The notes under the pieces: generated by a model
Databases searched by the model: none
Told to the model about the DNA's origin: nothing
The model's input: the letters and a program-made list of their open reading frames with translations, nothing else
Translations under genes and position numbers: made by a program
Part shown: piece after piece, positions 39,797-50,950 of the stretch
Numbering within the stretch: position 1 is the stretch's first letter
Layout of the letters: each line of letters begins with the position of its first letter
Assembly (NCBI GenBank): GCA_965227405.1
Contig: OZ245758.1
Span: forward strand, 2,387,153 to 2,451,152
DNA from: Polyangiales bacterium
GTDB taxonomy: Bacteria; Myxococcota_A; Polyangia; Polyangiales; Houyiibacteriaceae
Reading direction: 5' to 3'
DNA length: 64,000 nt

Positions 39797-41953
39797 GTGC
39801 CTGCGTCGTATGCCGTGGTACTTCCATACGTGCTTCGCCTCGCCATCGCCTGTGTTCTCGTTGCTTGTGGTGGCGGCGGACCTCGGCTTCTCGTTGACGT
39901 TCGTACCGACCTTGTTCCGGCGGTTGAGCTCGGTGAGGTAAGCGTCGATCTACTTGGCGACGGATTGGGCGATCCCGATCTCGGCCAGACGCGACTGGTG
40001 CTTCCCAGCGATGACTTCCTCGATGGGGTGCGCATCGCAGAGTTCGACGGGATCCGAAACGGAGAACGTCGACTGCGTGCCCAGCTGTTTGGTGTGGATG
40101 GGTCGTCGCTCGGTGATCGCGATGTCCAAGTCCAGGTTCGTGGCAACACTGCAGTGACGATCGTGTTCACACGCAGCTGCGTCGGAATCGAGTGCCCGGG
40201 CGACGGAAGTCCAACCGCTACGGAGTGCCTCAACGGAACATGCGTGCCGCCCGACTGCGTGGGTGGGATGTGTCCTGAAGCGTGTGTGGACGTGAGTGAT
40301 TGTCCGCGCGGTGCGGCCTGCTCGGAACCGATGTGCCTCGACGGCGCATGCTTCTTGGCGCCTACGGGTGAAGCCTGCGCGTCTGGGTTTGTGTGCATTC
40401 CGGAACGCGGTTGCGAGCCGACCGGTTCGATGGACGGCGGCACGGGCTGCATCGACGGCATGCCTTGCAACACGGGCAACGAGTGTGAACGGGGTCGAAC
40501 CGACTGCAGTTCAGGGTCGGCCGTATGTGTCGCCGATGGCGTGATGAATGCAGGCGTGAGCTGTCGCCCCGCCGACAATGAATGCGACATCGAAGAGTTC
40601 TGCGACGGTGTCGCGCCGACGTGTCCGACCGATGGCTTTGCGGATGTTGGAACGCCATGTACGGGCGGTTTCTGCAACGGCCCAGCGTGCGGAGCTTGTC
40701 AGCCCGGCGTCGCATGCGAGACCCCAAACGCGTGTGAGACGGGAACGATCGAATGTGCGGACGGTGTTCCGACCTGCGTTGCGTCGGGTGTGGTGGCTGC
40801 GGGAACCGAGTGTCGTGAGGCAGCAGGTCCATGCGACGTCGCAGAGTTGTGCGACGGAACCTCACCAGAGTGTCCCGGCGATGCGTTTCAGCCGATTGAC
40901 TTTGTGTGTCGCGCAGCTGCGGGTACCTGTGACCAAGTTGAAGTCTGCGATGGTGCGACGCCCGCATGCCCTGCCGACGCTTTCGATATGAGCACCGAGT
41001 GTCGACCGGCGGTCGGACCCTGCGACCTCGCGGAAGTGTGCTCAGGCGGTGCGTCGTGTCCGCCCGATGATCTGCGTGCAGCTGGCTCGACGTGTCGTGC
41101 CGCGGTGACCGAGTGCGATGCGGAAGAAACCTGCGACGGCGCAACTAGCGTCTGTCCTGACGACGAGTTTGAAAGCGCAGGCACCATGTGCTCGGGTGGA
41201 CGCGTCTGCGATGGTTCAGGCGCGTGTCTTGACCTCGGTTGCGGTGATCCGTGCAGCACCGGTGCGGCGTGCGAAATCGGAATCATCGATTGCAGCAGCG
41301 GTTCACCGGTATGCGTGCGCGATCGCTTGCGCGATATTGGCTTCGTCTGTCGACCGGTCGCAGGTGCGTGTGACGTGGCCGAAGAGTGCGACGGCGTGAG
41401 CGCAGCGTGCCCGGTCGATGGGTTCCTGAGCGGTGGCGAATGTCGTGCTGCGTCAGGAGCATGCGATCTGTCGGAGAGCTGCACTGGAACCAGTGCGTTC
41501 TGCCCAGCGGATCAAGTTCGTCCTGCGTCGTTTGAGTGTCGAGCAAGCGCGGGCATGTGCGATATCGCGGAGAACTGCGACGGAACCAACAAGGCGTGTC
41601 CCAGCGACGTGTTCGTTTCGAGTGCGACAGTGTGTCGAGGCAGCGAAGGTTTTTGTGATGTGATCGAGAACTGCCCTGGAAACGGTCCGGACTGTCCTGC
41701 CGATGGCTTTGTGAGTTCGGGAGTCGTGTGTCGTCCGGGAATTGGAATGTGCGATCGAACCGAGTCGTGCACTGGAACGGCAGCACGATGTCCGGCCGAC
41801 CAACTACAACCAGCGGGTTTTCCGTGTAGCGCCCGCGATGAGTTTCCATGTCACGTCAGCGAGTGCGATGGATCGGGCATGTGCGAGATCGTGGGCGACA
41901 ACTGTCCAGGAGGTCAGGCGTGTTGTGAACTCGGGTGCAATATCTGTCCGTGA
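39797..41953 (+). CDS. lipoprotein with about 15 Myxococcus-type cysteine-rich repeats
   Basis: Lipobox CVLVACGG. Repeating C(R)..(A)G.CD..E.CDG....CP.D.F units fill the C-terminal two-thirds. Confidence 0.75.
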   Translation: MPASYAVVLPYVLRLAIACVLVACGGGGPRLLVDVRTDLVPAVELGEVSVDLLGDGLGDPDLGQTRLVLPSDDFLDGVRIAEFDGIRNGERRLRAQLFGVDGSSLGDRDVQVQVRGNTAVTIVFTRSCVGIECPGDGSPTATECLNGTCVPPDCVGGMCPEACVDVSDCPRGAACSEPMCLDGACFLAPTGEACASGFVCIPERGCEPTGSMDGGTGCIDGMPCNTGNECERGRTDCSSGSAVCVADGVMNAGVSCRPADNECDIEEFCDGVAPTCPTDGFADVGTPCTGGFCNGPACGACQPGVACETPNACETGTIECADGVPTCVASGVVAAGTECREAAGPCDVAELCDGTSPECPGDAFQPIDFVCRAAAGTCDQVEVCDGATPACPADAFDMSTECRPAVGPCDLAEVCSGGASCPPDDLRAAGSTCRAAVTECDAEETCDGATSVCPDDEFESAGTMCSGGRVCDGSGACLDLGCGDPCSTGAACEIGIIDCSSGSPVCVRDRLRDIGFVCRPVAGACDVAEECDGVSAACPVDGFLSGGECRAASGACDLSESCTGTSAFCPADQVRPASFECRASAGMCDIAENCDGTNKACPSDVFVSSATVCRGSEGFCDVIENCPGNGPDCPADGFVSSGVVCRPGIGMCDRTESCTGTAARCPADQLQPAGFPCSARDEFPCHVSECDGSGMCEIVGDNCPGGQACCELGCNICP

Positions 41954-42073: not shown

Positions 42074-42643
42074 TTAGCGCTCGAGCGTTAGCGAGAGCGA
42101 CCGCATCCGCGTTCGACACGCGTCCCGCCACGTATCCAACTCCGGTGTCTGCATGTGTTCGACACACACACCAAACGCGGCCGACGCGCGCTGACGGAGA
42201 TCAAACACCGGCGCACGCACCGCATTTGCGGCCTCGGGGGGTAGCGCGCCAAGGTTCGCGTCTTCGAGTTGGTTCGCAGTGCGCAGCAGAATGTGCCCGT
42301 GAATCGCCGCACCCAATCCGAGCTCGCTCTGCGGCCCGCCACGCAGCACGCGTCGTGCTTCATTGGCGTCCGCCAGCATCTGCGCGCGTCGTTCGATCCA
42401 CGGTTCGTGCGTTTCACGAACCCACAACACGTTCGTGGCTGGTGGTAGCGGATCGAGTTGGCGTGAGAGATCGAGCAGCGCCCTGAGTCCAATCCCTGCG
42501 GGATGAAAGGGCATCGCCGGCCATCCTTCAACCCGCGGCGTCGGTGTCGTCGGCGCTTCAACCGCGGGTTCGGATCCTCCGCACGCAAACGCGAAAGCGA
42601 TGAGCAGGGCAAGGCGCACGCGTGAAAGGTACTCTCGAGCCAT
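42074..42643 (-). CDS. hypothetical lipoprotein
   Basis: Start moved to MAREYLSRVRLALLIAFAFACGG. The longer ORF would run antisense through yciH. Confidence 0.45.
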   Translation of the reverse strand: MAREYLSRVRLALLIAFAFACGGSEPAVEAPTTPTPRVEGWPAMPFHPAGIGLRALLDLSRQLDPLPPATNVLWVRETHEPWIERRAQMLADANEARRVLRGGPQSELGLGAAIHGHILLRTANQLEDANLGALPPEAANAVRAPVFDLRQRASAAFGVCVEHMQTPELDTWRDACRTRMRSLSLTLER

Positions 42644-43013
42644 GGGTAAGAAAAAGCCGCCTGCCCCCAAAGAGGAAGTGCGCAACAACCCGTTTGCTGC
42701 GTTGGCACCGGCGAGCGCGCCACTACCCAAACAAGAGAAGAAGCCCGAGCCTGTTGCGTCCAGTGCTTCGAACCCGTTTGCGGGCAAGCTTGTGTTGCGT
42801 CGAGAGAAGAAGGGCCGTGGGGGCAAGACGGTAACGCGTCTTAGTGGCGTTGCGCCAAACGCCTTGGACGACACGGCCAAGCAAATGAAGAAGGGCTTGG
42901 GTTGTGGGTCGCTCGTGGAAGGCGACGACATCGTGTTGTTGGGTTCGTTGGTTGATCGCGCAGCGGACTGGCTTGAGAAGCAGGGTGCGAAGAAGGTGGT
43001 TCGCGGAAACTAA
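42642..43013 (+). CDS. yciH: SUI1/eIF1-family translation initiation factor-like protein
   Basis: Start at MGKKKPPAPKEE. KKGRGGKTVTRLSGV...LKKGLGCGSLVEGDDIVLLGS matches the YciH/SUI1 pattern. Confidence 0.8.
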   Translation: MGKKKPPAPKEEVRNNPFAALAPASAPLPKQEKKPEPVASSASNPFAGKLVLRREKKGRGGKTVTRLSGVAPNALDDTAKQMKKGLGCGSLVEGDDIVLLGSLVDRAADWLEKQGAKKVVRGN

Positions 43014-43070
43014 ACTCGGAAAAAGATCGATACGCGGGGTTGACCCGTCGAAGACGCCGACGCATTGTAG

Positions 43071-43439
<369 letters not shown>

Positions 43440-43479
43440 GCAAGAATCTCCTTTCAACAAAAGGGAAAACAAAGATTAC

Positions 43480-43851
43480 GGTTGTTGCCGCGCCCTTACG
43501 CGAGAAGCGTACACACGGTAAAAAACAAACCTCGCAAGTTTGCACTGTCGGTTCGAATCCGGCTCGGTCCACCGCGTCCTAGGACGCTGCAAACAGCTCG
43601 CGCTACAAAGCGAGAGCACTTCCCAAAGGTCGAACGAGCGCGAAGCGCTCGACGATCGGAGGGGGAACAAGCTCGGCGCTGAAAAGCGAGAGCACCTCCA
43701 AAGTTCGAACGAGCGCGCAAGCGCTCGACGATCGGAGGGGGGGACCCAGAGGGCTCTGCCCGATGGGGGGGGAGGACTTCAAGAAAGTCCTCCCAGAAAT
43801 CTGGGCCGAATAAACACATTCGTCGCTTTTACGACTTGTGCGGCAACAACC
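43480..43851 (+). ncRNA. helix-closed structured element (module 1) with a tRNA T-arm and two tandem ~75-nt hairpin-rich units
   Basis: GGTTGTTGCCGC (43480..43491) is the exact complement of GCGGCAACAACC (43840..43851). Inside are TACACAC (43510), the T-arm GTCGG-TTCGAAT-CCGGC (43547..43563) followed by TCGGTCC-ACC, a tandem repeat at 43595..43669 / 43670..43743, and a 9-bp hairpin GGAGGACTT/AAGTCCTCC. Confidence 0.35.
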
Positions 43852-43859
43852 TTATTTAC

Positions 43860-44004
43860 GCGCCTGTAGTTCAATTGGATAGAACGCCGTCGTCAAGACA
43901 GCTTCAGCAACTTACGCGGCTCCACTCGCGACTACTCTGCAAGCCTACACACGCATCGGGCTCATAACCCGGAGGTTACAGGTTCGAATCCTGTCGGGCG
44001 CTCC
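43860..44004 (+). tRNA. tRNA-Met(CAT)-like gene interrupted by a 69-nt insert in the 5' strand of the anticodon stem (module 2)
   Basis: GCGCCTG-TA-GTTC-AATTGGATA-GAAC-G-CC [insert 43889..43957] GGG-CTCATAA-CCCGG-AGGTT-ACAGG-TTCGAAT-CCTGT-CGGGCGC-T. The acceptor pairs over 7 bp (one T-G). The D, anticodon and T arms are canonical once the insert is removed. Confidence 0.45.
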
Positions 44005-44008
44005 TCTC

Positions 44009-44163
44009 GCACATCTCAAAACTATCGCCGGCCGCTACGCGGCCACAGCACACGACCTGCTGCCATCCTCTCGCCTCGGTAATGAGTACATTGCCTCGGT
44101 TCGCGGACGCACCATCTCGTGCACTCTGACGGCGTATCGACGGGCGCTAGTTTTGAGATGTGC
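44009..44163. mobile_element. MITE-like element, copy 2 (155 bp), inserted between tRNA-like modules 2 and 3
   Basis: GCACATCTCAAAACTATCGCC (44009..44029) pairs with 44143..44163 as a 21-bp TIR with one mismatch. Its interior is collinear with copy 1 at 22491..22653. Confidence 0.6.
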
Positions 44164-44179
44164 TTCGAATCGTGACCAC

Positions 44180-44290
44180 TTTTGAAGCGTACATACTTGG
44201 AGGTTCGAATCCTTCACTCCCCACCAGAGCTCTAAGCTCAATCACATTGGGGAGTTGGGCAAATGGCAAAGCCAACGCGTCGTAAAACGC
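44180..44290 (+). ncRNA. circularly permuted tRNA-like module (module 3)
   Basis: Order is T-arm GGAGG-TTCGAAT-CCTTC (44199..44215), ACTCCCC-ACCA (44216..44226), a 22-nt linker with hairpin GAGCT-CTA-AGCTC, then GGGGAGT (44249..44255, exact complement of ACTCCCC), TG, and D-arm GGCA-AATGGCA-AGCC. The closing helix is GCGT (44187..44190) with ACGC (44275..44278), extendable to TTTT/AAAA. Confidence 0.4.
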
Positions 44291-44336
44291 GTCTATCAAC
44301 GACCGCTTCACCAACTTACACGATTCAACAATTCAT

Positions 44337-44459
44337 CCCTCGCGATCACTGATCGGCTTACACACTGGCTAAACTGGGATAGGCAACAGACTCTTAATCT
44401 GTGATTTGTTGGTTCGAATCCAACGTGAACATCACCAGCCGATCGAACTTGCGTGAGGG
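44337..44459 (+). ncRNA. 123-nt YrlA-like tRNA mimic (module 4, anticodon-loop CTCTTAA)
   Basis: The leader pairs with the trailer: CCCTCGCG (44337..44344) with TGCGTGAGGG (44450..44459), and ATCGGC (44352..44357) with GCCGAT (44438..44443). The core has TACACAC, a D-arm-like segment with GG, ACAGA-CTCTTAA-TCTGT, and GTTGG-TTCGAAT-CCAAC. Confidence 0.5.
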
Positions 44460-44469
44460 TGCCAAATTT

Positions 44470-44576
44470 CGCGCGCGTCCTAACAACTGGGACTTACACA
44501 CTGGCCTTGAAAGCCAACGGATTGAAACTCCGTCCCCTGCAAAGGGAACACAACGTCCCGGAAACTCACGCGCGCT
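44470..44576 (+). ncRNA. 107-nt Y-RNA-like module (module 4.5) with D- and anticodon-arm look-alikes but no T-arm
   Basis: GCGCGCG (44471..44477) pairs with CGCGCGC (44569..44575), and GGGAC (44489..44493) with GTCCC (44555..44559). The core has TACACAC, GGC-CTTGAAA-GCC, ACGGA-TTGAAAC-TCCGT, and a CCCT-GCAA-AGGG hairpin. Confidence 0.4.
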
Positions 44577-44588
44577 ATTCAAATCACC

Positions 44589-44711
44589 CCCTCGCGATCA
44601 CCTGCGCGGCTTACACACTCGCCTAACGGTAAGGCAACAGACTTCAACTCTGTCGATGTTGGTTCGATTCCAACGTGAAACCAAACACAGCCGTTCGAAC
44701 TTGCGTGAGGG
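44589..44711 (+). ncRNA. 123-nt YrlA-like tRNA mimic (module 5, anticodon-loop CTTCAAC)
   Basis: Paralog of module 4. CCCTCGCG (44589..44596) pairs with TGCGTGAGGG (44702..44711). The core has TACACAC, TC, a perfect D-arm GCCT-AACGGTA-AGGC, A, ACAGA-CTTCAAC-TCTGT, CGAT, and GTTGG-TTCGATT-CCAAC. Confidence 0.5.
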
Positions 44712-44760
44712 AAGCTTCTGGTCGTCTTTCAGATGACCTTCGTCTCGGTCCCCGACTTCA

Positions 44761-44824
44761 TCGACGTACACACAATCGGATCCTGGGGGCGAAAGCCCTC
44801 TGCATCATTGCGTAGAACCGTCGA
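44761..44824 (+). ncRNA. small helix-closed module (module 6) with TACACAC and a GAAA-tetraloop hairpin
   Basis: TCGACG (44761..44766) pairs with CGTCGA (44819..44824). TACACAC is at 44767. Contains the hairpin GGGGC-GAAA-GCCCT. Confidence 0.3.
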
Positions 44825-44886
44825 CGTAACTTGACCGAGCGTTGATCTGCAGCGTTCGTCTAATGCCAGGATGCCGGCCCTGTTAG

Positions 44887-46524
<1,638 letters not shown>

Positions 46525-46646
46525 TCGCAACAACAAACAAGAAACAAGGAATGCGAGTGCGATCTCAGATGGGGTCGCTTCGCGTTCCCGGTTTCGAACG
46601 CGTGCGCGGCAATCGCACGTTTCCTTGGAGTTCATCCGTGACTGAC

Positions 46647-47534
46647 ATGAAGACTGCTTACCGACTTGCGGCTGCGGCCGTTCGTCGTCGTTACGCCGAG
46701 CAGCGTCCGCACACGCTGGCTCGACTCAACGCGCTGACCAAGAGTGACGTCGCGGTTTACCGTGGCGTGCACGACCACGTGCAGGAAGTGCTCAACATCT
46801 TGGGTGTTCCGCACAGCATGGATCCCAAAAAGCTGGAGCACCGCATCGCGTTCGTGAACTGCACGAGCAAGATTGCGCACGTCGACAAGCTCGAGCGCTT
46901 TGCGCGCGAGGGTGGTCTCGTCGTGAGTTCCGACTGGGCGCTGCGCACGATCCAAAAGACGTTTCCGGGCATGATCCGCAAGGGCGGTTCACGCGCGACG
47001 GGTGACGAGGTTGTGGGTGTCGAAGCAACGGCCGACAGCCTTTGGTCCGAAGTTGTCGTGCTCGGTACCAATCCTCAGTGGTGGCTGGAGGGTGGCAGCG
47101 ATCCGATCGTGATCGATTCACCGGACAAGGTCGTCATCGAGGCTGCAAGCCACGAGATGTTGCAGCGTTACGCCGCACCGGTTGTCGCTGCATCGTTCCC
47201 GTGGGGAGCGGGTCACGTATTCCACGTGGTCAGCCACTTCTGGTTGAAGCGCACCCGTACCGCTGCAGGTCGTCACGCAGGACCCGCAGCCGATTTCATG
47301 CGGGCCGGTCTGAAGTTGAGCGAAGAGGGCATCGACGCCGTATTCGCGAAGACCAAGATCGACCCGAAGGCCGTGAGCTTCGCTTCGCTTCAGAGCGCGG
47401 CGACCGCCACCGAGCTCGTCGCGCGTTTGTGCGCAGACGGACTCGGCGCTCAACCCGGCCTGCCGTTTGTCCCCGCCTCCTCCGAGGCGGGGACCAACCC
47501 TTTCCTCGCCGCTCTCAAGCGCGCGTTTTCGTAA
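46647..47534 (+). CDS. hypothetical protein (unknown function), operonic with rsr
   Basis: Start ATG 46647 (MKTAYRLAAAAV), or GTG 46638 after GGAG. 295 aa with coding-like composition. No motif I can name. Confidence 0.6.
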   Translation: MKTAYRLAAAAVRRRYAEQRPHTLARLNALTKSDVAVYRGVHDHVQEVLNILGVPHSMDPKKLEHRIAFVNCTSKIAHVDKLERFAREGGLVVSSDWALRTIQKTFPGMIRKGGSRATGDEVVGVEATADSLWSEVVVLGTNPQWWLEGGSDPIVIDSPDKVVIEAASHEMLQRYAAPVVAASFPWGAGHVFHVVSHFWLKRTRTAAGRHAGPAADFMRAGLKLSEEGIDAVFAKTKIDPKAVSFASLQSAATATELVARLCADGLGAQPGLPFVPASSEAGTNPFLAALKRAFS

Positions 47535-47538
47535 TCCA

Positions 47539-48396
47539 ATGACGCATGTTCTGGACCTGATCGATCGGCTCGCCCGCGCAGAGGACGAGCTTCGTTCGCG
47601 GCGTTTTCTTTCGCCGTGCGTTCCGGGCGTGCGTCTGCGGGTGCGCATCGACGGCTTGGTGCACGCGTTTGCGCCGAACCCACCGCGCTACGCAGGTTGG
47701 GGGTTGTTCCAGCCGATCGACTCGAAGCGCGCACAGCTGGTGAAGCGTCCAGACGACGCGCTGGTGAATCGCTACCTCGAGCACCTTCCGTCCGAACGCT
47801 TCTACGCGGTCAAGCAGGCCAAGGGGAAGGCGTGGTGGGCGATGCCGCTGTCCGCAGAAGCTTTCCGTGCGCGTCACGGTCGCGATGGTCCGATCGTGGT
47901 GCACCTGTGCAAGAACGTCGCGTCGTTCGAGACGATCGTCGTGCGTTGGGACGGTGCGAGCTTCTGGTTCGACCAGGTCGATCGTTTTGCCGATCCGGTT
48001 CTGCCGGAGAAGCTGCGCGTTGGTTTCACCGAAGGCAAGGAGCTCGAAGAGCTTCAGCTTGCGGGCATCACTCCGGAGCTCGTCGACGCGTACGTGTGGG
48101 CGTCGCTTTGGGATGTCGAGCAGCGCAAGAAGAGCCTTGAGGGTTCGCTCGCGCACGCGCTCAAGATCGGTGGCGGCAAGCTCGTCACCTTTCGCGACAC
48201 CGACACGCACCTCGTGGTGGAGTGGCGGGATCGCTTGGGTCGTCGACACAGTTCGGCGATTCAGAAGAACGCACTGCAGGTGCAAAGCGCCGGTGCGGTG
48301 TGTCTCCAGGGTCGCGATGCGGACTTCGATCTCACGTCGCTCGTCGGTGTGATGGACGAAGCCCCGCAATACCTCGTCGACATGCTCGACGATTAG
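47539..48396 (+). CDS. hypothetical protein (unknown function), operonic with rsr
   Basis: Start ATG 47539 (MTHVLDLIDRLARAEDEL), 4 nt after the previous stop. 285 aa, no motif recognised. Confidence 0.6.
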   Translation: MTHVLDLIDRLARAEDELRSRRFLSPCVPGVRLRVRIDGLVHAFAPNPPRYAGWGLFQPIDSKRAQLVKRPDDALVNRYLEHLPSERFYAVKQAKGKAWWAMPLSAEAFRARHGRDGPIVVHLCKNVASFETIVVRWDGASFWFDQVDRFADPVLPEKLRVGFTEGKELEELQLAGITPELVDAYVWASLWDVEQRKKSLEGSLAHALKIGGGKLVTFRDTDTHLVVEWRDRLGRRHSSAIQKNALQVQSAGAVCLQGRDADFDLTSLVGVMDEAPQYLVDMLDD

Positions 48397-48531
48397 CTCA
48401 CCCAAATCCGTACTCCTGCGTGTTTGTTGGGAATGCGCAGAGTGCGGGGGTTTGGGCTCGTTTTGGAGGGAGTTCGGGTCAGATCTGACCCTGTCCCCAA
48501 AATCCTCCCCCGATTGTGCGGAGAGAGTCTG

Positions 48532-49164
48532 ATGTCGTTTTTGTTTCACGAAAAGTTGTCTCGCTCGGGTGCTGTTATGGCGAAGCTTCGTGCTGCGCAT
48601 GTGACGGTGTGTGGGGCGGGTGCGCTTGGAAGCCACGTCGTCGAAGGGCTTGCTCGCTCGGGCGTGGGTGGGCTTCGCGTGATTGATCGCGACAAGGTCG
48701 AAGAGCGCAATCTCTCGACTCAGCCGTGGACGCGTGCAGACATCGGGCAGCCGAAGGCGCGCCTGCTAGCGCACTCTGTCTTTCGCGCGGTTGGCGTGCA
48801 GGTCGACGCACGTGCGAAGGAACTCAACAGCGACAACGCACGCGCGTTGGTTCGCGGTAGCTCCGTGGTTGTCGACGCGTTCGACAACAGCGTGGGTCGT
48901 GCAGCGGTCAAGGCTGCAGCCGCCAAGCTCGGGCTGCCGTGTGTGCACGCCGGGATGGCAGGTGAGTACTCCGAGGTCGTGTGGGATCCGCACTACGTGG
49001 TTCCGAGTGCGACCAACGACGACGTTTGCGACTACCCGCTAGCGCGCAACTTGGCGATCTTGACGTCCGCGATCGCGGCGGAAACGGTGATCCGTTTCCT
49101 CGCTACCGGAGTGATGGAGAACCGCGCCCTGACGTTCGGCGATCTAAAGCTGACGACCCACTGA
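48532..49164 (+). CDS. small ThiF/MoeB/E1-like adenylyltransferase
   Basis: Start ATG 48532 (MSFLFHEKLSRSG). Rossmann Gly loop VTVCGAGALGSHVVEGLARSGVG, then RVIDRDKVEERNLSTQ (the DxDxV..sNL.RQ pattern of E1-like enzymes). Only 210 aa, so it has no rhodanese or extra C-terminal domain. Confidence 0.75.
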   Translation: MSFLFHEKLSRSGAVMAKLRAAHVTVCGAGALGSHVVEGLARSGVGGLRVIDRDKVEERNLSTQPWTRADIGQPKARLLAHSVFRAVGVQVDARAKELNSDNARALVRGSSVVVDAFDNSVGRAAVKAAAAKLGLPCVHAGMAGEYSEVVWDPHYVVPSATNDDVCDYPLARNLAILTSAIAAETVIRFLATGVMENRALTFGDLKLTTH

Positions 49165-49305: not shown

Positions 49306-50115
49306 ATGGCACAGGCACCCCGCTTCGAACCGCTTGGACAAGGCGCGTTCACCAAAACCCACGCTGAGTTCACCGACATCGACACGTTTGACTGGGTGGC
49401 ACTCGAGGCGTCCGCGAAGACGTTCGACGCGCACACGCGTGAACGCGGTCGTCGTGCGTTTGTGCTGCGCGCACTGGACGAACAACGCAGCGTTGTGGCG
49501 TTTAGTGAGCTGCTCACAGAACTCTGTCTGTCCGGAGCACCCATTGAAGTCATTGGTTCGCTGACCCGCGTTGTTCGCGACGAAGCGTTGCACGTCGACA
49601 TGTGCGACCGCGTAGTCAAAGCGCTCGGCGGGTGGGACGAGAAGTCCCCGCAGCCAACCTGGGTACGCAGCAATAAGAAGCTCCCGCTCAAACTTCGCGT
49701 GCTCCAAACGGTTCTGGGTTCGCTGTGCGTCGGGGAGACGATCAGCGTGCACATGATCAAGGGGGTTCGCGAGCATGCCAGCGAACCGGTGATCCACGCG
49801 TTGCTGACGCGACTGCTTGCCGACGAGTCGTACCACTCGCGCATTGGCTGGTGGTGGTTGCGCGAGATCGAAATGAGCGACGAAGAGCGCACGTTTGCGA
49901 AGCGTTACGTCGCGAAGATGTTGCCGCACATCATCAAGACGATGCGGCCGAAGCTCAACGGCAAGAAGCACACGTATTCGCCGTTTGGGTCCATGAGTGC
50001 AGAAGAACGGCTCGATGCGTTCGACGCAGCGATGCACAAGACGATCTTGCCGGGGTTTGATGCCGCTGGACTCGAGGCTTCAGCGATTTGGAATGAGCTT
50101 GGGAGGGCTGCTTAG
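49306..50115 (+). CDS. ferritin-like (di-iron carboxylate) superfamily protein
   Basis: 269 aa, helical. Two ExxH motifs (RDEALH, ADESYH) spaced as in ferritin-like four-helix bundles. Confidence 0.5.
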   Translation: MAQAPRFEPLGQGAFTKTHAEFTDIDTFDWVALEASAKTFDAHTRERGRRAFVLRALDEQRSVVAFSELLTELCLSGAPIEVIGSLTRVVRDEALHVDMCDRVVKALGGWDEKSPQPTWVRSNKKLPLKLRVLQTVLGSLCVGETISVHMIKGVREHASEPVIHALLTRLLADESYHSRIGWWWLREIEMSDEERTFAKRYVAKMLPHIIKTMRPKLNGKKHTYSPFGSMSAEERLDAFDAAMHKTILPGFDAAGLEASAIWNELGRAA

Positions 50116-50116
50116 G

Positions 50117-50950
50117 ATGAGATTGGACCGGAAAAACAACGCGCTTGAGACGATCTTGATGATCGCGCGTTCGGCGACTCGCACGATCACGATGTCGTCG
50201 GTCGGGACTGCGCTTGCTGTGTTGCTGAGTGTTGGAGGCTGTTCTCAGTCGCATACAAACCTGCCGGACTTGGACGGCGACGGCTACACGCAGGCGACGG
50301 ACTGCAATGACGAGGATCCATCGATTCATCCCGGTGCTCTGGATCCGGAGTGTCCGGATGGAATCGACCAGGATTGCGACGGACACGATGGTGACCCATT
50401 CATCGCCTGCAACTTCTTCCCGCTCGACCGGGACGGAGACGGCTACGAGGAAGGCCACGATTGCAACGACTCCGACCCCACGGTGTATCCCGGTGCACCT
50501 GAAGATTGCTGCACGACAGTCGACAACAACTGCGATGGGATCATCGGGCCTACGGAAGACATCATCTGCAACTGCTTCTTTGGGGAGGATGCGGACGGAG
50601 ACGGCTTCTTCACATTCTCAGACTTCGGCGCGCCTGCTGACTGTGACGACAGCGATCCCGCAATCCACCCTGAGGCCGAAGAGATCTGCGGCAACGATAT
50701 CGACGAGAACTGCGATGGCGTCGCGGAACCATGCGTTGTGGTCAATCCACTGCCTGATGCGGACGGGGACGGCTACACCGCCGATGTCGATTGTGACGAC
50801 TCGAATCCGTACACAAACCCCGGCGCCACCGAAGAGTGCTGGGACGGAATCGACAACAACTGCAACGGGCTCGTCGATGAAGAGCCTCCAGAAGGCTGCG
50901 TGATTCTCAACGGAATGCGCGACGTCGAACTCGACGCAGAACACGCCTAA
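50117..50950 (+). CDS. lipoprotein with repeated putative metal-binding (MopE-like) motifs
   Basis: ATG 50117 follows GGGAGGG. Lipobox LLSVGGC. Six or more units of DGDGY....DC(N/D)D.DP..(H/Y)PGA.E.C...D.(D/N)CDG. Confidence 0.65.
   Translation: MRLDRKNNALETILMIARSATRTITMSSVGTALAVLLSVGGCSQSHTNLPDLDGDGYTQATDCNDEDPSIHPGALDPECPDGIDQDCDGHDGDPFIACNFFPLDRDGDGYEEGHDCNDSDPTVYPGAPEDCCTTVDNNCDGIIGPTEDIICNCFFGEDADGDGFFTFSDFGAPADCDDSDPAIHPEAEEICGNDIDENCDGVAEPCVVVNPLPDADGDGYTADVDCDDSNPYTNPGATEECWDGIDNNCNGLVDEEPPEGCVILNGMRDVELDAEHA

Follow-up and report, generated by a model that had tools for sequence, protein, structure and literature searches.

What does a genome keep tRNA-shaped sequences for when their anticodon arms are intact and their acceptor stems nearly gone? 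The question is raised by positions 44337 to 44711 of a 64,000-nt stretch of DNA from a Polyangiales bacterium (contig OZ245758.1), hereafter the window, whose coordinates are used throughout. Two elements there, M4 and M5, display the triplets CUU and UCA. Together with the element between them, M4b, they are three units of a tandem array of approximately seven co-oriented modules on the + strand (43482-44839), recognized by folding and model searches. The array fills the 1.6-kb gap between a gene for 66 amino acids (aa), ubl66, and a gene for a 485-aa Ro60-like protein that begins ~350 nt downstream of the three modules. We are confident that the modules constitute a conserved structured RNA family linked to the Ro60-like gene, and we regard them as probable RNA partners of its product, analogous to the Y RNAs of known Ro60 particles.

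Modules M4, M4b and M5 and the adjoining Ro60-like gene

The elements that carry this answer are the following, where R1 denotes the covariance model of the module family introduced in the next section.

44337-44459, + strand: M4, native-order cloverleaf, CUU; Rfam tRNA 36.2 bits, R1 99.5 bits
44471-44575, + strand: M4b, T-arm-less module; R1 41.2 bits, E 9e-9, outside the R1 seed
44589-44711, + strand: M5, native-order cloverleaf, UCA; Rfam tRNA 47.4 bits, R1 101.3 bits
45067-46524, + strand: Ro60-like protein, 485 aa; helical-repeat ring plus vWA domain by AlphaFold and Foldseek

For 44337-44711, every coordinate and sequence detail of the initial annotation that we checked holds. M4 and M5 are paralogs of 123 nt each that are 83% identical and share the same outer helix, CCCUCGCG/GCGUGAGG (8 bp including one G-U; 44337-44344 and 44452-44459 in M4), as well as the same anticodon stem, ACAGA/UCUGU. 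Inside the outer helix, M4 forms an inner helix, GAUCGGC (44351-44357)/GCCGAUC (44438-44444). Each module has a D arm, an anticodon arm, and a T arm of the form GGUUCGAWUCC, and both ends of the tRNA core continue into the two outer helices. The strand UUACACAC occurs in both, and its final three bases pair with GUG to leave an acceptor remnant of 3 bp (in M4, CAC at 44363-44365 and GUG at 44425-44427, followed by U8 at 44366). The anticodon loop of M4 is CUCUUAA (44391-44397, with CUU at 44393-44395), its T arm is GUUGG-UUCGAAU-CCAAC (44408-44424), and ACCA lies at 44434-44437, 9 nt 3' of the T stem. The corresponding loop of M5 is CUUCAAC (44642-44648), with UCA at 44644-44646.

The cores of M5 (44616-44677, 47.4 bits) and M4 (44363-44427, 36.2 bits) exceed the gathering score of 29 for the Rfam tRNA family (RF00005) and were the sole Rfam matches at gathering threshold in the window. 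ARAGORN likewise called Lys-CTT at M4 and "SeC"-TCA at M5 and no further tRNA in the window. The tRNA tertiary nucleotides expected of a YrlA-type RNA are U8, A14, G18G19, U54U55C56, and A58; both Rfam alignments display U8, the D-loop GG, and GGUUCGAWUCC, which are invariant or nearly so in the module alignment (A2). The match spans tRNA model positions 5 to 66 only, and neither a 7-bp acceptor stem nor free processable ends with NCCA accompany it. Since the tRNA ends run on into the scaffold, the RNA is not chargeable as it stands. Where tRNA-Sec has an extended acceptor/T stack (8+5 or 9+4), a 6-bp D stem, and a long variable arm, M5 pairs just 3 bp of acceptor stem and 4 bp of D stem, and its variable region is 4 nt long. 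The "SeC" label follows from the UCA triplet alone.

M4b is built on helices 44471-44478/44568-44575 and 44487-44493/44555-44561 (RNAfold) and contains a D-like hairpin (44503-44515), an anticodon-like hairpin with the loop UUGAAAC (44518-44532), and a GCAA-tetraloop hairpin (44535-44546). The initial annotation took the last of these to replace the T arm. The hairpin is indeed present and the T arm missing. Cyanobacterial modules, however, carry CCCGCAAGGG in the variable-arm position, 5' of a T arm, so it is more likely that M4b belongs to a long-variable-arm type that kept this arm and lost the T arm.

A common scaffold runs through the array: an outer helix of ~8 bp, an internal loop (5' CCYNAC-like, 3' RACUU), an inner helix of 6 to 9 bp, and the strand UUACAYAC. 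From Myxococcota to Cyanobacteria and phages, its conservation shows in sequence as well as in covariation, and the modules differ in their cargo, not in the scaffold. Of the 10 copies of TACAYAC on the + strand of the window, 7 fall inside the 1.3-kb array (43510-44767), as do all five GGTTCGAWTCC T-loops found on either strand, a clustering far beyond chance. The remaining modules, and the leader that follows them, are as follows.

43482-43597, + strand: M1, degenerate scaffold with TACACAC at 43510 and a T-arm hairpin at 43547-43563; R1 24.2 bits, E 3e-4; 3' boundary uncertain
43860-44001, + strand: M2, tRNA-Met(CAU)-like, with its own 7-bp acceptor stem (GCGCCUG/CGGGCGC), D arm, CAU anticodon arm, and T arm
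44167-44326, + strand: M3, scaffold with circularly permuted tRNA-like cargo; R1 26.0 bits
44744-44839, + strand: M6, same scaffold with a short cargo that is not tRNA-like; missed by R1
44840-45066, + strand: structured leader of the Ro60-like gene; RNAfold -93 kcal/mol for 44850-45066

Three topologies of tRNA graft thus occur in one array: native in M4 and M5, permuted in M3, and scaffold-inserted in M2. In M2 the scaffold itself is the insert, a permuted version of ~69 nt placed between the D arm and the CAU anticodon arm and capped by a hairpin (CGCGG-CUCCAC-UCGCG, 43915-43930). M2 scores 28.9 bits with the Rfam tRNA model, just under the gathering score, and matches R1 partially at 25.5 bits; its acceptor stem covaries with that of L001 (GCACUCG/CGAGUGC), L-numbers being our labels for related loci fetched for comparison and L001 and L002 the two closest relatives of the window. 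M3 opens with a T arm (44199-44215) that leads into the acceptor 3' strand plus ACCA (44216-44226) and a linker; then come the acceptor 5' strand (44249-44255), a U, the D arm (44257-44273), and an anticodon-like hairpin (44275-44292). Its 7-bp acceptor hairpin covaries with those of L001 (UCGCUCC/GGAGCGA) and L002 (CCGCCCG/CGGGCGG). M6 was recognized by RNAfold and by comparison with minimal modules of 81 to 93 nt that adjoin the gene in cyanobacteria; it comprises the outer helix CUCGGUC/GACCGAG, a CCCGAC... 5' loop, the inner helix UCGACG/CGUCGA, UACACAC, and UAACUU.

A G+C-rich hairpin followed by UUUU (44998-45025) ends 41 nt 5' of the ATG of the Ro60-like gene and may be either an attenuator or the 3' terminus of the array RNA. 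A scan of 42900-45200 for consensus sigma-70 promoters and terminators yielded nothing useful, this hairpin falling below the terminator threshold. Between M1 and M2, two tandem 76-nt direct repeats (43600-43751, 85 to 100% identical in segments) form strong hairpins and contain neither TACAYAC nor an R1 match, and a perfect hairpin lies 3' of them at approximately 43771-43795. Between M2 and M3, 44012-44160 folds into a long imperfect hairpin of ~150 nt (-67 kcal/mol) that lacks scaffold motifs.

On its predicted structure, the 485-aa protein has the Ro60 fold. The AlphaFold model (pLDDT 74) places helices over residues 3 to 289 and an alpha/beta domain over residues 296 to 456, and in a Foldseek search of the PDB the top 13 of 13 matches were Ro60 structures aligned over the full length (E 1e-11 to 6e-9, 13 to 18% identity), among them Deinococcus radiodurans Rsr (TM 0.69) and the Ro60 proteins of Xenopus, human, and Thermus phage phiLo. 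The phiLo protein was also retrieved by phmmer from PDB sequences (E 1e-4), and the MIDAS motif DxSxS (D301, S303, S305) is invariant in 18 homologous sequences. No TROVE domain was matched in Pfam, where VWA_2 alone appeared at 21.8 bits, under its cut-off, and no NCBIfam model matched. Given 13 to 18% identity and the lack of TROVE and NCBIfam matches, the protein probably represents a distant paralogous Ro60 family rather than an ortholog of Rsr, the neighbor expected within ~4 kb of a YrlA-type Y RNA. More than 2400 homologs exist, annotated merely as "vWA domain-containing" or "hypothetical", and those from cyanobacteria, acidobacteria, armatimonadotes, and actinomycetes are 60 to 63% identical to the protein of the window. 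A 528-aa antisense open reading frame (ORF) at 45049-46635 on the - strand spans the Ro60-like gene and is most likely a shadow ORF of G+C-rich DNA.

Covariation, linkage and anticodon-loop turnover across the family

Relatives of the Ro60-like protein are encoded in at least 574 species-level genomes, and 80 such loci were compared. R1 was built on 20 tRNA-type modules aligned with MAFFT and drawn from Myxococcota, Cyanobacteria, Armatimonadota, and uncultured lineages, with M4 and M5 in the seed; delimiting modules by minimum free energy was too noisy and was dropped in favor of this covariance model. RNAalifold detected compensatory changes in 22 of 31 predicted pairs of the alignment. When the acceptor pairs were added by hand, 94.2% of cells paired, compared with 32 to 48% when the partners were slid by 1 to 3 columns. 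Double, compensatory changes occurred in 23 of 36 pairs, and none of 500 shuffles reached the observed values. The homologs therefore show conserved stems rather than random drift, and the modules are structured RNAs.

Within the window, R1 matched M5, M4, M4b, M3, part of M2, and M1, and nothing outside 43482-44716 in the 64 kb. Across the 80 loci and the window it returned 366 matches at E < 1e-3, and among the matches listed for the 80 loci all were on the strand of the Ro60-like gene. Approximately 150 were full tRNA-type modules (76 to 141 bits), the rest having the same scaffold with other cargo. The minimal modules by the start codon retain the scaffold and UUACAUAC and have no tRNA body. 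Cyanobacterial modules have an acceptor stem of 5 to 7 bp, and arrays in related loci reach 5 to 9 modules over 2 to 3 kb, some modules lying also upstream of ubl66. Linkage is equally evident from the scaffold motif GC[CTG]TACAYAC, which was present in 73 of the 75 loci with enough upstream sequence. Its density was 0.81/kb in the 4 kb upstream of the gene, 0.065/kb elsewhere on the + strand, and 0.002/kb on the opposite strand, corresponding to a 12-fold enrichment over the rest of the strand and one of ~400-fold over the opposite strand.

The initial annotation had pointed to divergence concentrated in the anticodon loop of M4 and M5. The same pattern holds family-wide, with most state changes among near-identical modules. 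A 7-nt anticodon loop was found in 129 of the 150 best modules, with a pyrimidine at position 32 in 96%, U33 in 92%, a purine at position 37 in 94%, and A38 in 73%, whereas positions 34 to 36 presented 35 different triplets. Counted within clusters of near-identical modules (≥88% identical), changes per column ranged from 9.0 (anticodon loop) through 7.2 (variable region), 5.6 (3' linker), 4.1 (D loop), and 3.6 (T loop) down to 2.2 (paired columns). With loop columns excluded from clustering, positions 34, 35, and 36 scored 18, 12, and 14 and U33 just 3, and the ranking of regions was stable whichever loop was excluded. Tandem paralogs in Oscillatoria (L070, L076, L080) illustrate this, being near-identical save for their loops: CUCAUAA, UUAUGGA, UUAUAGC, UUAGGAA, UUAUCCG, and GUCUCCU. 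As judged from sequence, the architecture of the loop, that is, the U-turn framing of tRNA, is constrained and the triplet is free. Variation among homologs thus lies where the initial annotation had looked for it, in the fastest-changing part of a module whose framing is kept.

An enrichment of stop-reading anticodons was considered and rejected. CTA accounted for 21 of 129 loops, but 20 of these were CTCTAAA loops of one closely related cluster, which amounts to one origin of CTA and no trend.

The cassette in bacteria and phages

Array and Ro60-like gene belong to a cassette that also comprises the ubiquitin-like (Ubl-like) gene, the OB-like p309, and an E1-like enzyme. In the window, a further gene, p327, lies between the Ro60-like gene and p309.

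43239-43439, + strand: ubl66, putative ubiquitin-like protein, 66 aa, C-terminus ...RPEAVYG-stop
46551-47534, + strand: p327, start codon uncertain; present in 15 of 80 loci
47536-48396, + strand: p309, 285 aa, predicted small beta-barrels (OB-like) and a conserved Cys-containing C-terminal tail
48529-49164, + strand: E1-like adenylating enzyme, ThiF family, start codon uncertain; Pfam ThiF E 4.5e-31

By tblastn, ubl66 lies upstream of the array in 60 of the 80 related loci. All 60 copies are 66 aa long and end in [VLI]YG, a phage copy ends in ...AIFG, and the more than 1400 homologs are all annotated as "hypothetical". Aligned with ubiquitin by hhalign, ubl66 is in register at a weak E of 0.015; hhalign against ThiS, a profile search of the PDB, and NCBIfam gave no match. 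The E1-like gene occurs in 37 of 80 loci, adjoining p309, and the PDB relatives of its product include UBA7 (2e-11), TcdA (1.6e-10), and ThiF (3e-9), together with Uba4, MccB, and Cap2. A Gly-ended small protein and a ThiF-family adenylating enzyme, as expected of a Ubl-E1 conjugation or sulfur-carrier pair, are encoded in one cassette. No PP-loop thiolase or rhodanese was found in it. Among the cassette proteins PADLOC flagged the ThiF-like one alone, for generic E1-E2 similarity.

p309 occurs in 42 of 80 bacterial loci. Its AlphaFold model (pLDDT 82) gave weak partial Foldseek matches to OB-fold proteins, and nothing was found for it in Pfam (all 18 alignment members), a PDB profile search, or NCBIfam. 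C256, D261, F264, and D265 are invariant. The best-conserved part, residues 249 to 272, is a tail, GAVCLQGRDADFDLTSLVGV, with the invariant Cys and an acidic DxDFD motif; its predicted structure is of low confidence, and a thioester site and a MIDAS-binding peptide are both conceivable. p327 matched nothing in Pfam, NCBIfam, PADLOC, or the PDB.

The cassette was found in Cyanobacteria, Myxococcota, Acidobacteriota, Actinomycetota, and Armatimonadota, on a 1.2-Mb Kovacikia plasmid, and on 20 phage contigs, namely the 595-kb uncultured phage LR756511.1 and 19 IMG/VR viral contigs, many of 130 to 570 kb. Phage loci encode p309 in 20 of 20 cases, ubl66 in 13, and a Prok-JAB peptidase in 14. This peptidase has an intact JAMM motif and sits between p309 and the E1-like gene (11700-12176 in L081 and in 13 further phage loci); with tblastn it was not recovered from the window or from any of the 80 bacterial loci. 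The phage loci likewise carry the RNA, R1 giving 51 matches upstream of the gene in the 19 IMG/VR contigs, 50 of them co-oriented, and 10 more in LR756511.1. Genuine tRNA clusters of up to ~25 genes lie 1 to 5 kb upstream of the cassette in the Oscillatoriales loci L008, L070, L076, and L080 and in the huge-phage contigs L082, L083, L092, and L099; they are found nearby in part in L031 and L067.

Transcription was observed for relatives of a Nostoc locus (L051). Four RNA-seq runs from two related organisms each yielded one assembled contig (word depth 75 to 372) that starts ~45 nt ahead of ubl66, crosses the array, and enters the Ro60-like gene.

Ro60/Y-RNA analogy and rival readings

Ro60/Y-RNA particles are conserved from bacteria to humans, in whom they are a major autoantigen in lupus and Sjogren syndrome. 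To our knowledge, the function of the variable Y-RNA module is established for one or two cases only; in D. radiodurans the Y RNA Yrn1 tethers Rsr to PNPase. Bacterial Y RNAs are encoded beside rsr and combine a Ro60-binding stem with a tRNA-like effector module (PMC4201824). In line with this established design, we put at roughly 60% the probability that the modules are RNA partners of the Ro60-like protein and analogs of Y RNAs.

The likeness is one of design more than of membership. The initial annotation had described tRNA mimics of the YrlA/YrlB type. What stands is that tRNA mimics are set in a scaffold of the kind that serves a protein partner, with a Ro60-like gene adjoining; arm order, binding motif, Rfam, and the missing TROVE domain speak against assignment to YrlA itself. 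In YrlA the order is T arm, closed acceptor hairpin, D arm, with the Ro60 stem at the anticodon position, and the 5' strand of that stem contains GNCGAAN0-1G (PMC4201824). As with YrlA/YrlB of Salmonella and Mycobacterium smegmatis, the modules lie beside a gene for a Ro60-fold protein, are co-transcribed with it, and occur in several copies per locus, and a tRNA-like domain, with tertiary nucleotides in its D and T loops, sits on a stem formed by the distal sequences. M3 alone has the YrlA order. Unlike YrlA, M4 and M5 run D, anticodon, T, have an intact 7-nt loop, lack GNCGAAN0-1G, and leave the scaffold at the acceptor end. The loci differ too, with a separate protein family that lacks TROVE, arrays of up to 9 modules, and Ubl/E1 genes and p309 in place of RtcB/RtcA. 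Covariance searches did not bear out a Y-RNA assignment: at E ≤ 10 over 42500-45200, Rfam 15 returned tRNA and chance microRNA-type matches and no Y-RNA family, although the set of bacterial Y-RNA models in Rfam was not verified.

Yrn1 is the closest known topology. Its structure can be depicted with D-like features followed by an "anticodon arm" on a 5-bp stem and a T arm, its Ro60-binding stem being formed from both ends (PMC4201824), and hence has the same 5'-to-3' order of arms. It is far less tRNA-like, however, with a 6-nt loop, no full D arm, no variable region, and the canonical Y-RNA helix, and it is a single RNA; the tRNA-type modules are full cloverleaves with canonical 7-nt loops on a different conserved scaffold. 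Vertebrate Y RNAs share with the modules the ring fold of the protein, a bulged or looped stem made of both ends, and a variable distal module, but are transcribed from separate Pol III genes, whereas the modules bear tRNA cloverleaves, form operon-encoded arrays, and have no Rfam Y_RNA match. Where the lower helix is entered, the 3' strand of human Y1 has ...ACUUG..., as in the modules, a resemblance that does not amount to a test. Cyanobacterial and phage tRNA arrays are similar in being tandem units with tRNA features, physically adjacent in some genomes. Their genes are free-standing units of 72 to 90 nt with a 7-bp acceptor and the standard anticodon set, while the modules are embedded in a scaffold with one acceptor-side sequence.

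If the modules are such partners, the Ro60-like ring would dock on the scaffold, and the tRNA-shaped cargo would be the displayed, effector-facing part. Given that the U-turn framing is kept while the triplet is free and fast-changing, the cargo would most likely be a bait or an adaptor for factors able to recognize the anticodon loop and the shape of a tRNA. Such factors may include nucleases that cut anticodons, enzymes of modification or repair, or the OB-like p309. This specific bait role is a tentative and rather doubtful proposal. The setting could be a tRNA-centered system of RNA surveillance or conflict that uses the Gly-ended Ubl-like protein and the E1-like enzyme, with the JAB peptidase in phages, as suggested by the canonical loop with its free triplet, the nearby tRNA clusters, the occurrence in bacteria and huge phages, and the Ubl/E1(/JAB) genes. 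tRNA clusters are already suspected of a part in phage-host conflicts over tRNA. In the fullest version, the Ro60-like ring would display diversifying anticodon-loop mimics as baits or sensors for anticodon-directed attack by nucleases or modifying toxins, coupled to Ubl/E1(/JAB) conjugation. A more radical variant would have the E1-like enzyme load the Gly-ended Ubl onto the tRNA-like RNA in a manner resembling aminoacylation. In either form this combined proposal is a long shot; if true, it would be the first functional link of Ubl chemistry with a Ro60/Y-RNA-type particle and would explain why the cassette is kept beside tRNA clusters in bacteria and huge phages.

Several points weigh against the Y-RNA analogy and what is built on it. 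Binding of the modules to the Ro60-like protein is inferred, as is the bait role. A search of 43440-45066 for GNCGAAN0-1G gave two + strand matches (43629 and 44788), neither on a scaffold strand, and docking would therefore need a recognition site different from the canonical Ro60-binding motif. At 9.0 versus 7.2 changes per column, the anticodon loop stands barely above the variable region, and with so modest a margin relaxed constraint fits as well as diversifying selection and the two are inseparable. The idea that an array holds a nonredundant panel of triplets was rejected, as triplets within one array proved not significantly more distinct than shuffled ones, identical pairs numbering 3 of 79 against an expected 5.2 ± 2.1. 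The RNA-seq contigs speak for presence and contiguity rather than mature RNA ends and may include DNA; expression was seen in Nostoc relatives, the sequence of the window organism occurring only in DNA runs or runs of unknown type. Lastly, the Ubl fold of ubl66 is putative, and any roles of ubl66, the E1-like enzyme, and p309 within the cassette are conjectural.

The alternative that survives best is that the array works in cis, as the leader of the operon mRNA, its modules serving as autoregulatory operators or as punctuation for RNase P or RNase Z rather than as trans-acting RNAs. The array does separate ubl66 from the Ro60-like gene and shares a single RNA-seq contig with the two, a minimal module and the hairpin followed by U's directly precede the start codon, and the 5- to 7-bp acceptor stem of cyanobacterial modules would be usable by RNase P. 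We nevertheless consider it unlikely. Five to nine modules over 2 to 3 kb, some upstream of ubl66, are excessive for an operator, and neither diverse cargo nor fast anticodon turnover is expected of one. With just three acceptor pairs in M4 and M5, processing by RNase P is not a conserved feature, and co-transcription does not discriminate because known Y RNAs are likewise co-transcribed with rsr (PMC4201824).

Also unlikely in our judgment is that the cassette enzymes use the modules as substrates or carriers instead of passive scaffolds, whether through an E1-like protein that acts on RNA as TcdA does at position 37, a sulfur relay from a Ubl thiocarboxylate, or transfer of the adenylated Ubl C-terminus to RNA. 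Such roles would suit an E1-like protein as close to TcdA as to ThiF, Uba4, and UBA7, a ubl66 that always ends in Gly, the purine at position 37 in 94% of loops, and an acceptor-side UUACAYAC common to all modules whatever the triplet. Yet t6A/ct6A requires A37 with U36, and U36 is present in just 28 of 129 loops. The cassette yielded no thiolase or rhodanese of the sort noted above, known sulfur carriers end in GG where ubl66 ends in YG, neither end of the RNA is free, and the phage JAB peptidase points to protein conjugation. In this last respect the cassette resembles the Ubl-E1-JAB operons (Bil/Bub, CBASS Cap2/Cap3), which share the Gly-ended small protein, the ThiF-family E1-like enzyme, and, in phages, JAMM/JAB; unlike them, it has no recognizable E2 domain and no PADLOC call beyond generic E1 similarity. 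We found no precedent in the literature for a Ubl-E1(-JAB) set tied to a Ro60-like protein and an RNA array.

Very improbable is that M4 and M5 are working tRNA genes with unusual precursors, M4 for tRNA-Lys(CUU) and M5 for a tRNA(UCA) that suppresses opal codons or carries selenocysteine. Their Rfam scores, the ARAGORN calls, and NCCA-like strings 3' of the T arm would favor this, but both ends are locked in conserved helices above a 3-bp acceptor stem, and the UCA module lacks the long variable arm and 8- to 9-bp acceptor of tRNA-Sec. The same acceptor-side sequence accompanies all triplets, so no identity elements for aminoacyl-tRNA synthetases track the anticodon, and orthologous modules swap triplets between close strains. 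Scarcely credible, lastly, is that functionless tRNA-derived repeats (pseudogenes, or elements like SINEs or MITEs) are decaying here: the tandem units do vary in completeness (M1, M4b, M6) and real tRNA arrays lie nearby in some genomes, but compensatory stem covariation across phyla and the strict way in which units are oriented and placed with respect to one gene family (73 of 75 loci) already contradict decay, and units are retained in phage genomes with their non-tRNA scaffold sequence conserved.

The Y-RNA analogy therefore remains our preferred reading, and the system looks like a so far undescribed relative of the Ro60/Y-RNA particle, to which it adds arrays, three graft topologies, fast-changing triplets, and Ubl/E1 partners. 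A full-text literature search returned no description of the RNA family or of the Ro60-like/Ubl/E1 cassette, though an earlier computational mention is possible. The module RNAs are unannotated and absent from Rfam 15, and the proteins represent a second, very divergent Ro60-like lineage spread over at least five phyla and huge phages. The lineage ties a Ro60-type protein to ubiquitin-like chemistry, adjoining tRNA clusters, and its graft topologies are a natural series in which to look for whatever is recruited by a tRNA-shaped Y-RNA module. Culturable carriers (Nostoc, Calothrix, Microseira, and Kovacikia) make it directly testable.

Some further genes lie at or near these loci. A SUI1/YciH homolog (42600-43013, Pfam 37.3 bits) is directly upstream of ubl66 in the window and holds the same position in L001 and L002 only. 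The cassette of the window is flanked by a 718-aa protein with eight disintegrin-like repeats (39797-41953) and a 317-aa protein with MopE-type metal-binding repeats (49997-50950), probably unrelated secreted proteins typical of Myxococcota. In a Nostoc locus (L038, 4649-5371), a 240-aa ORF that has no Pfam match lies between two modules of the array.

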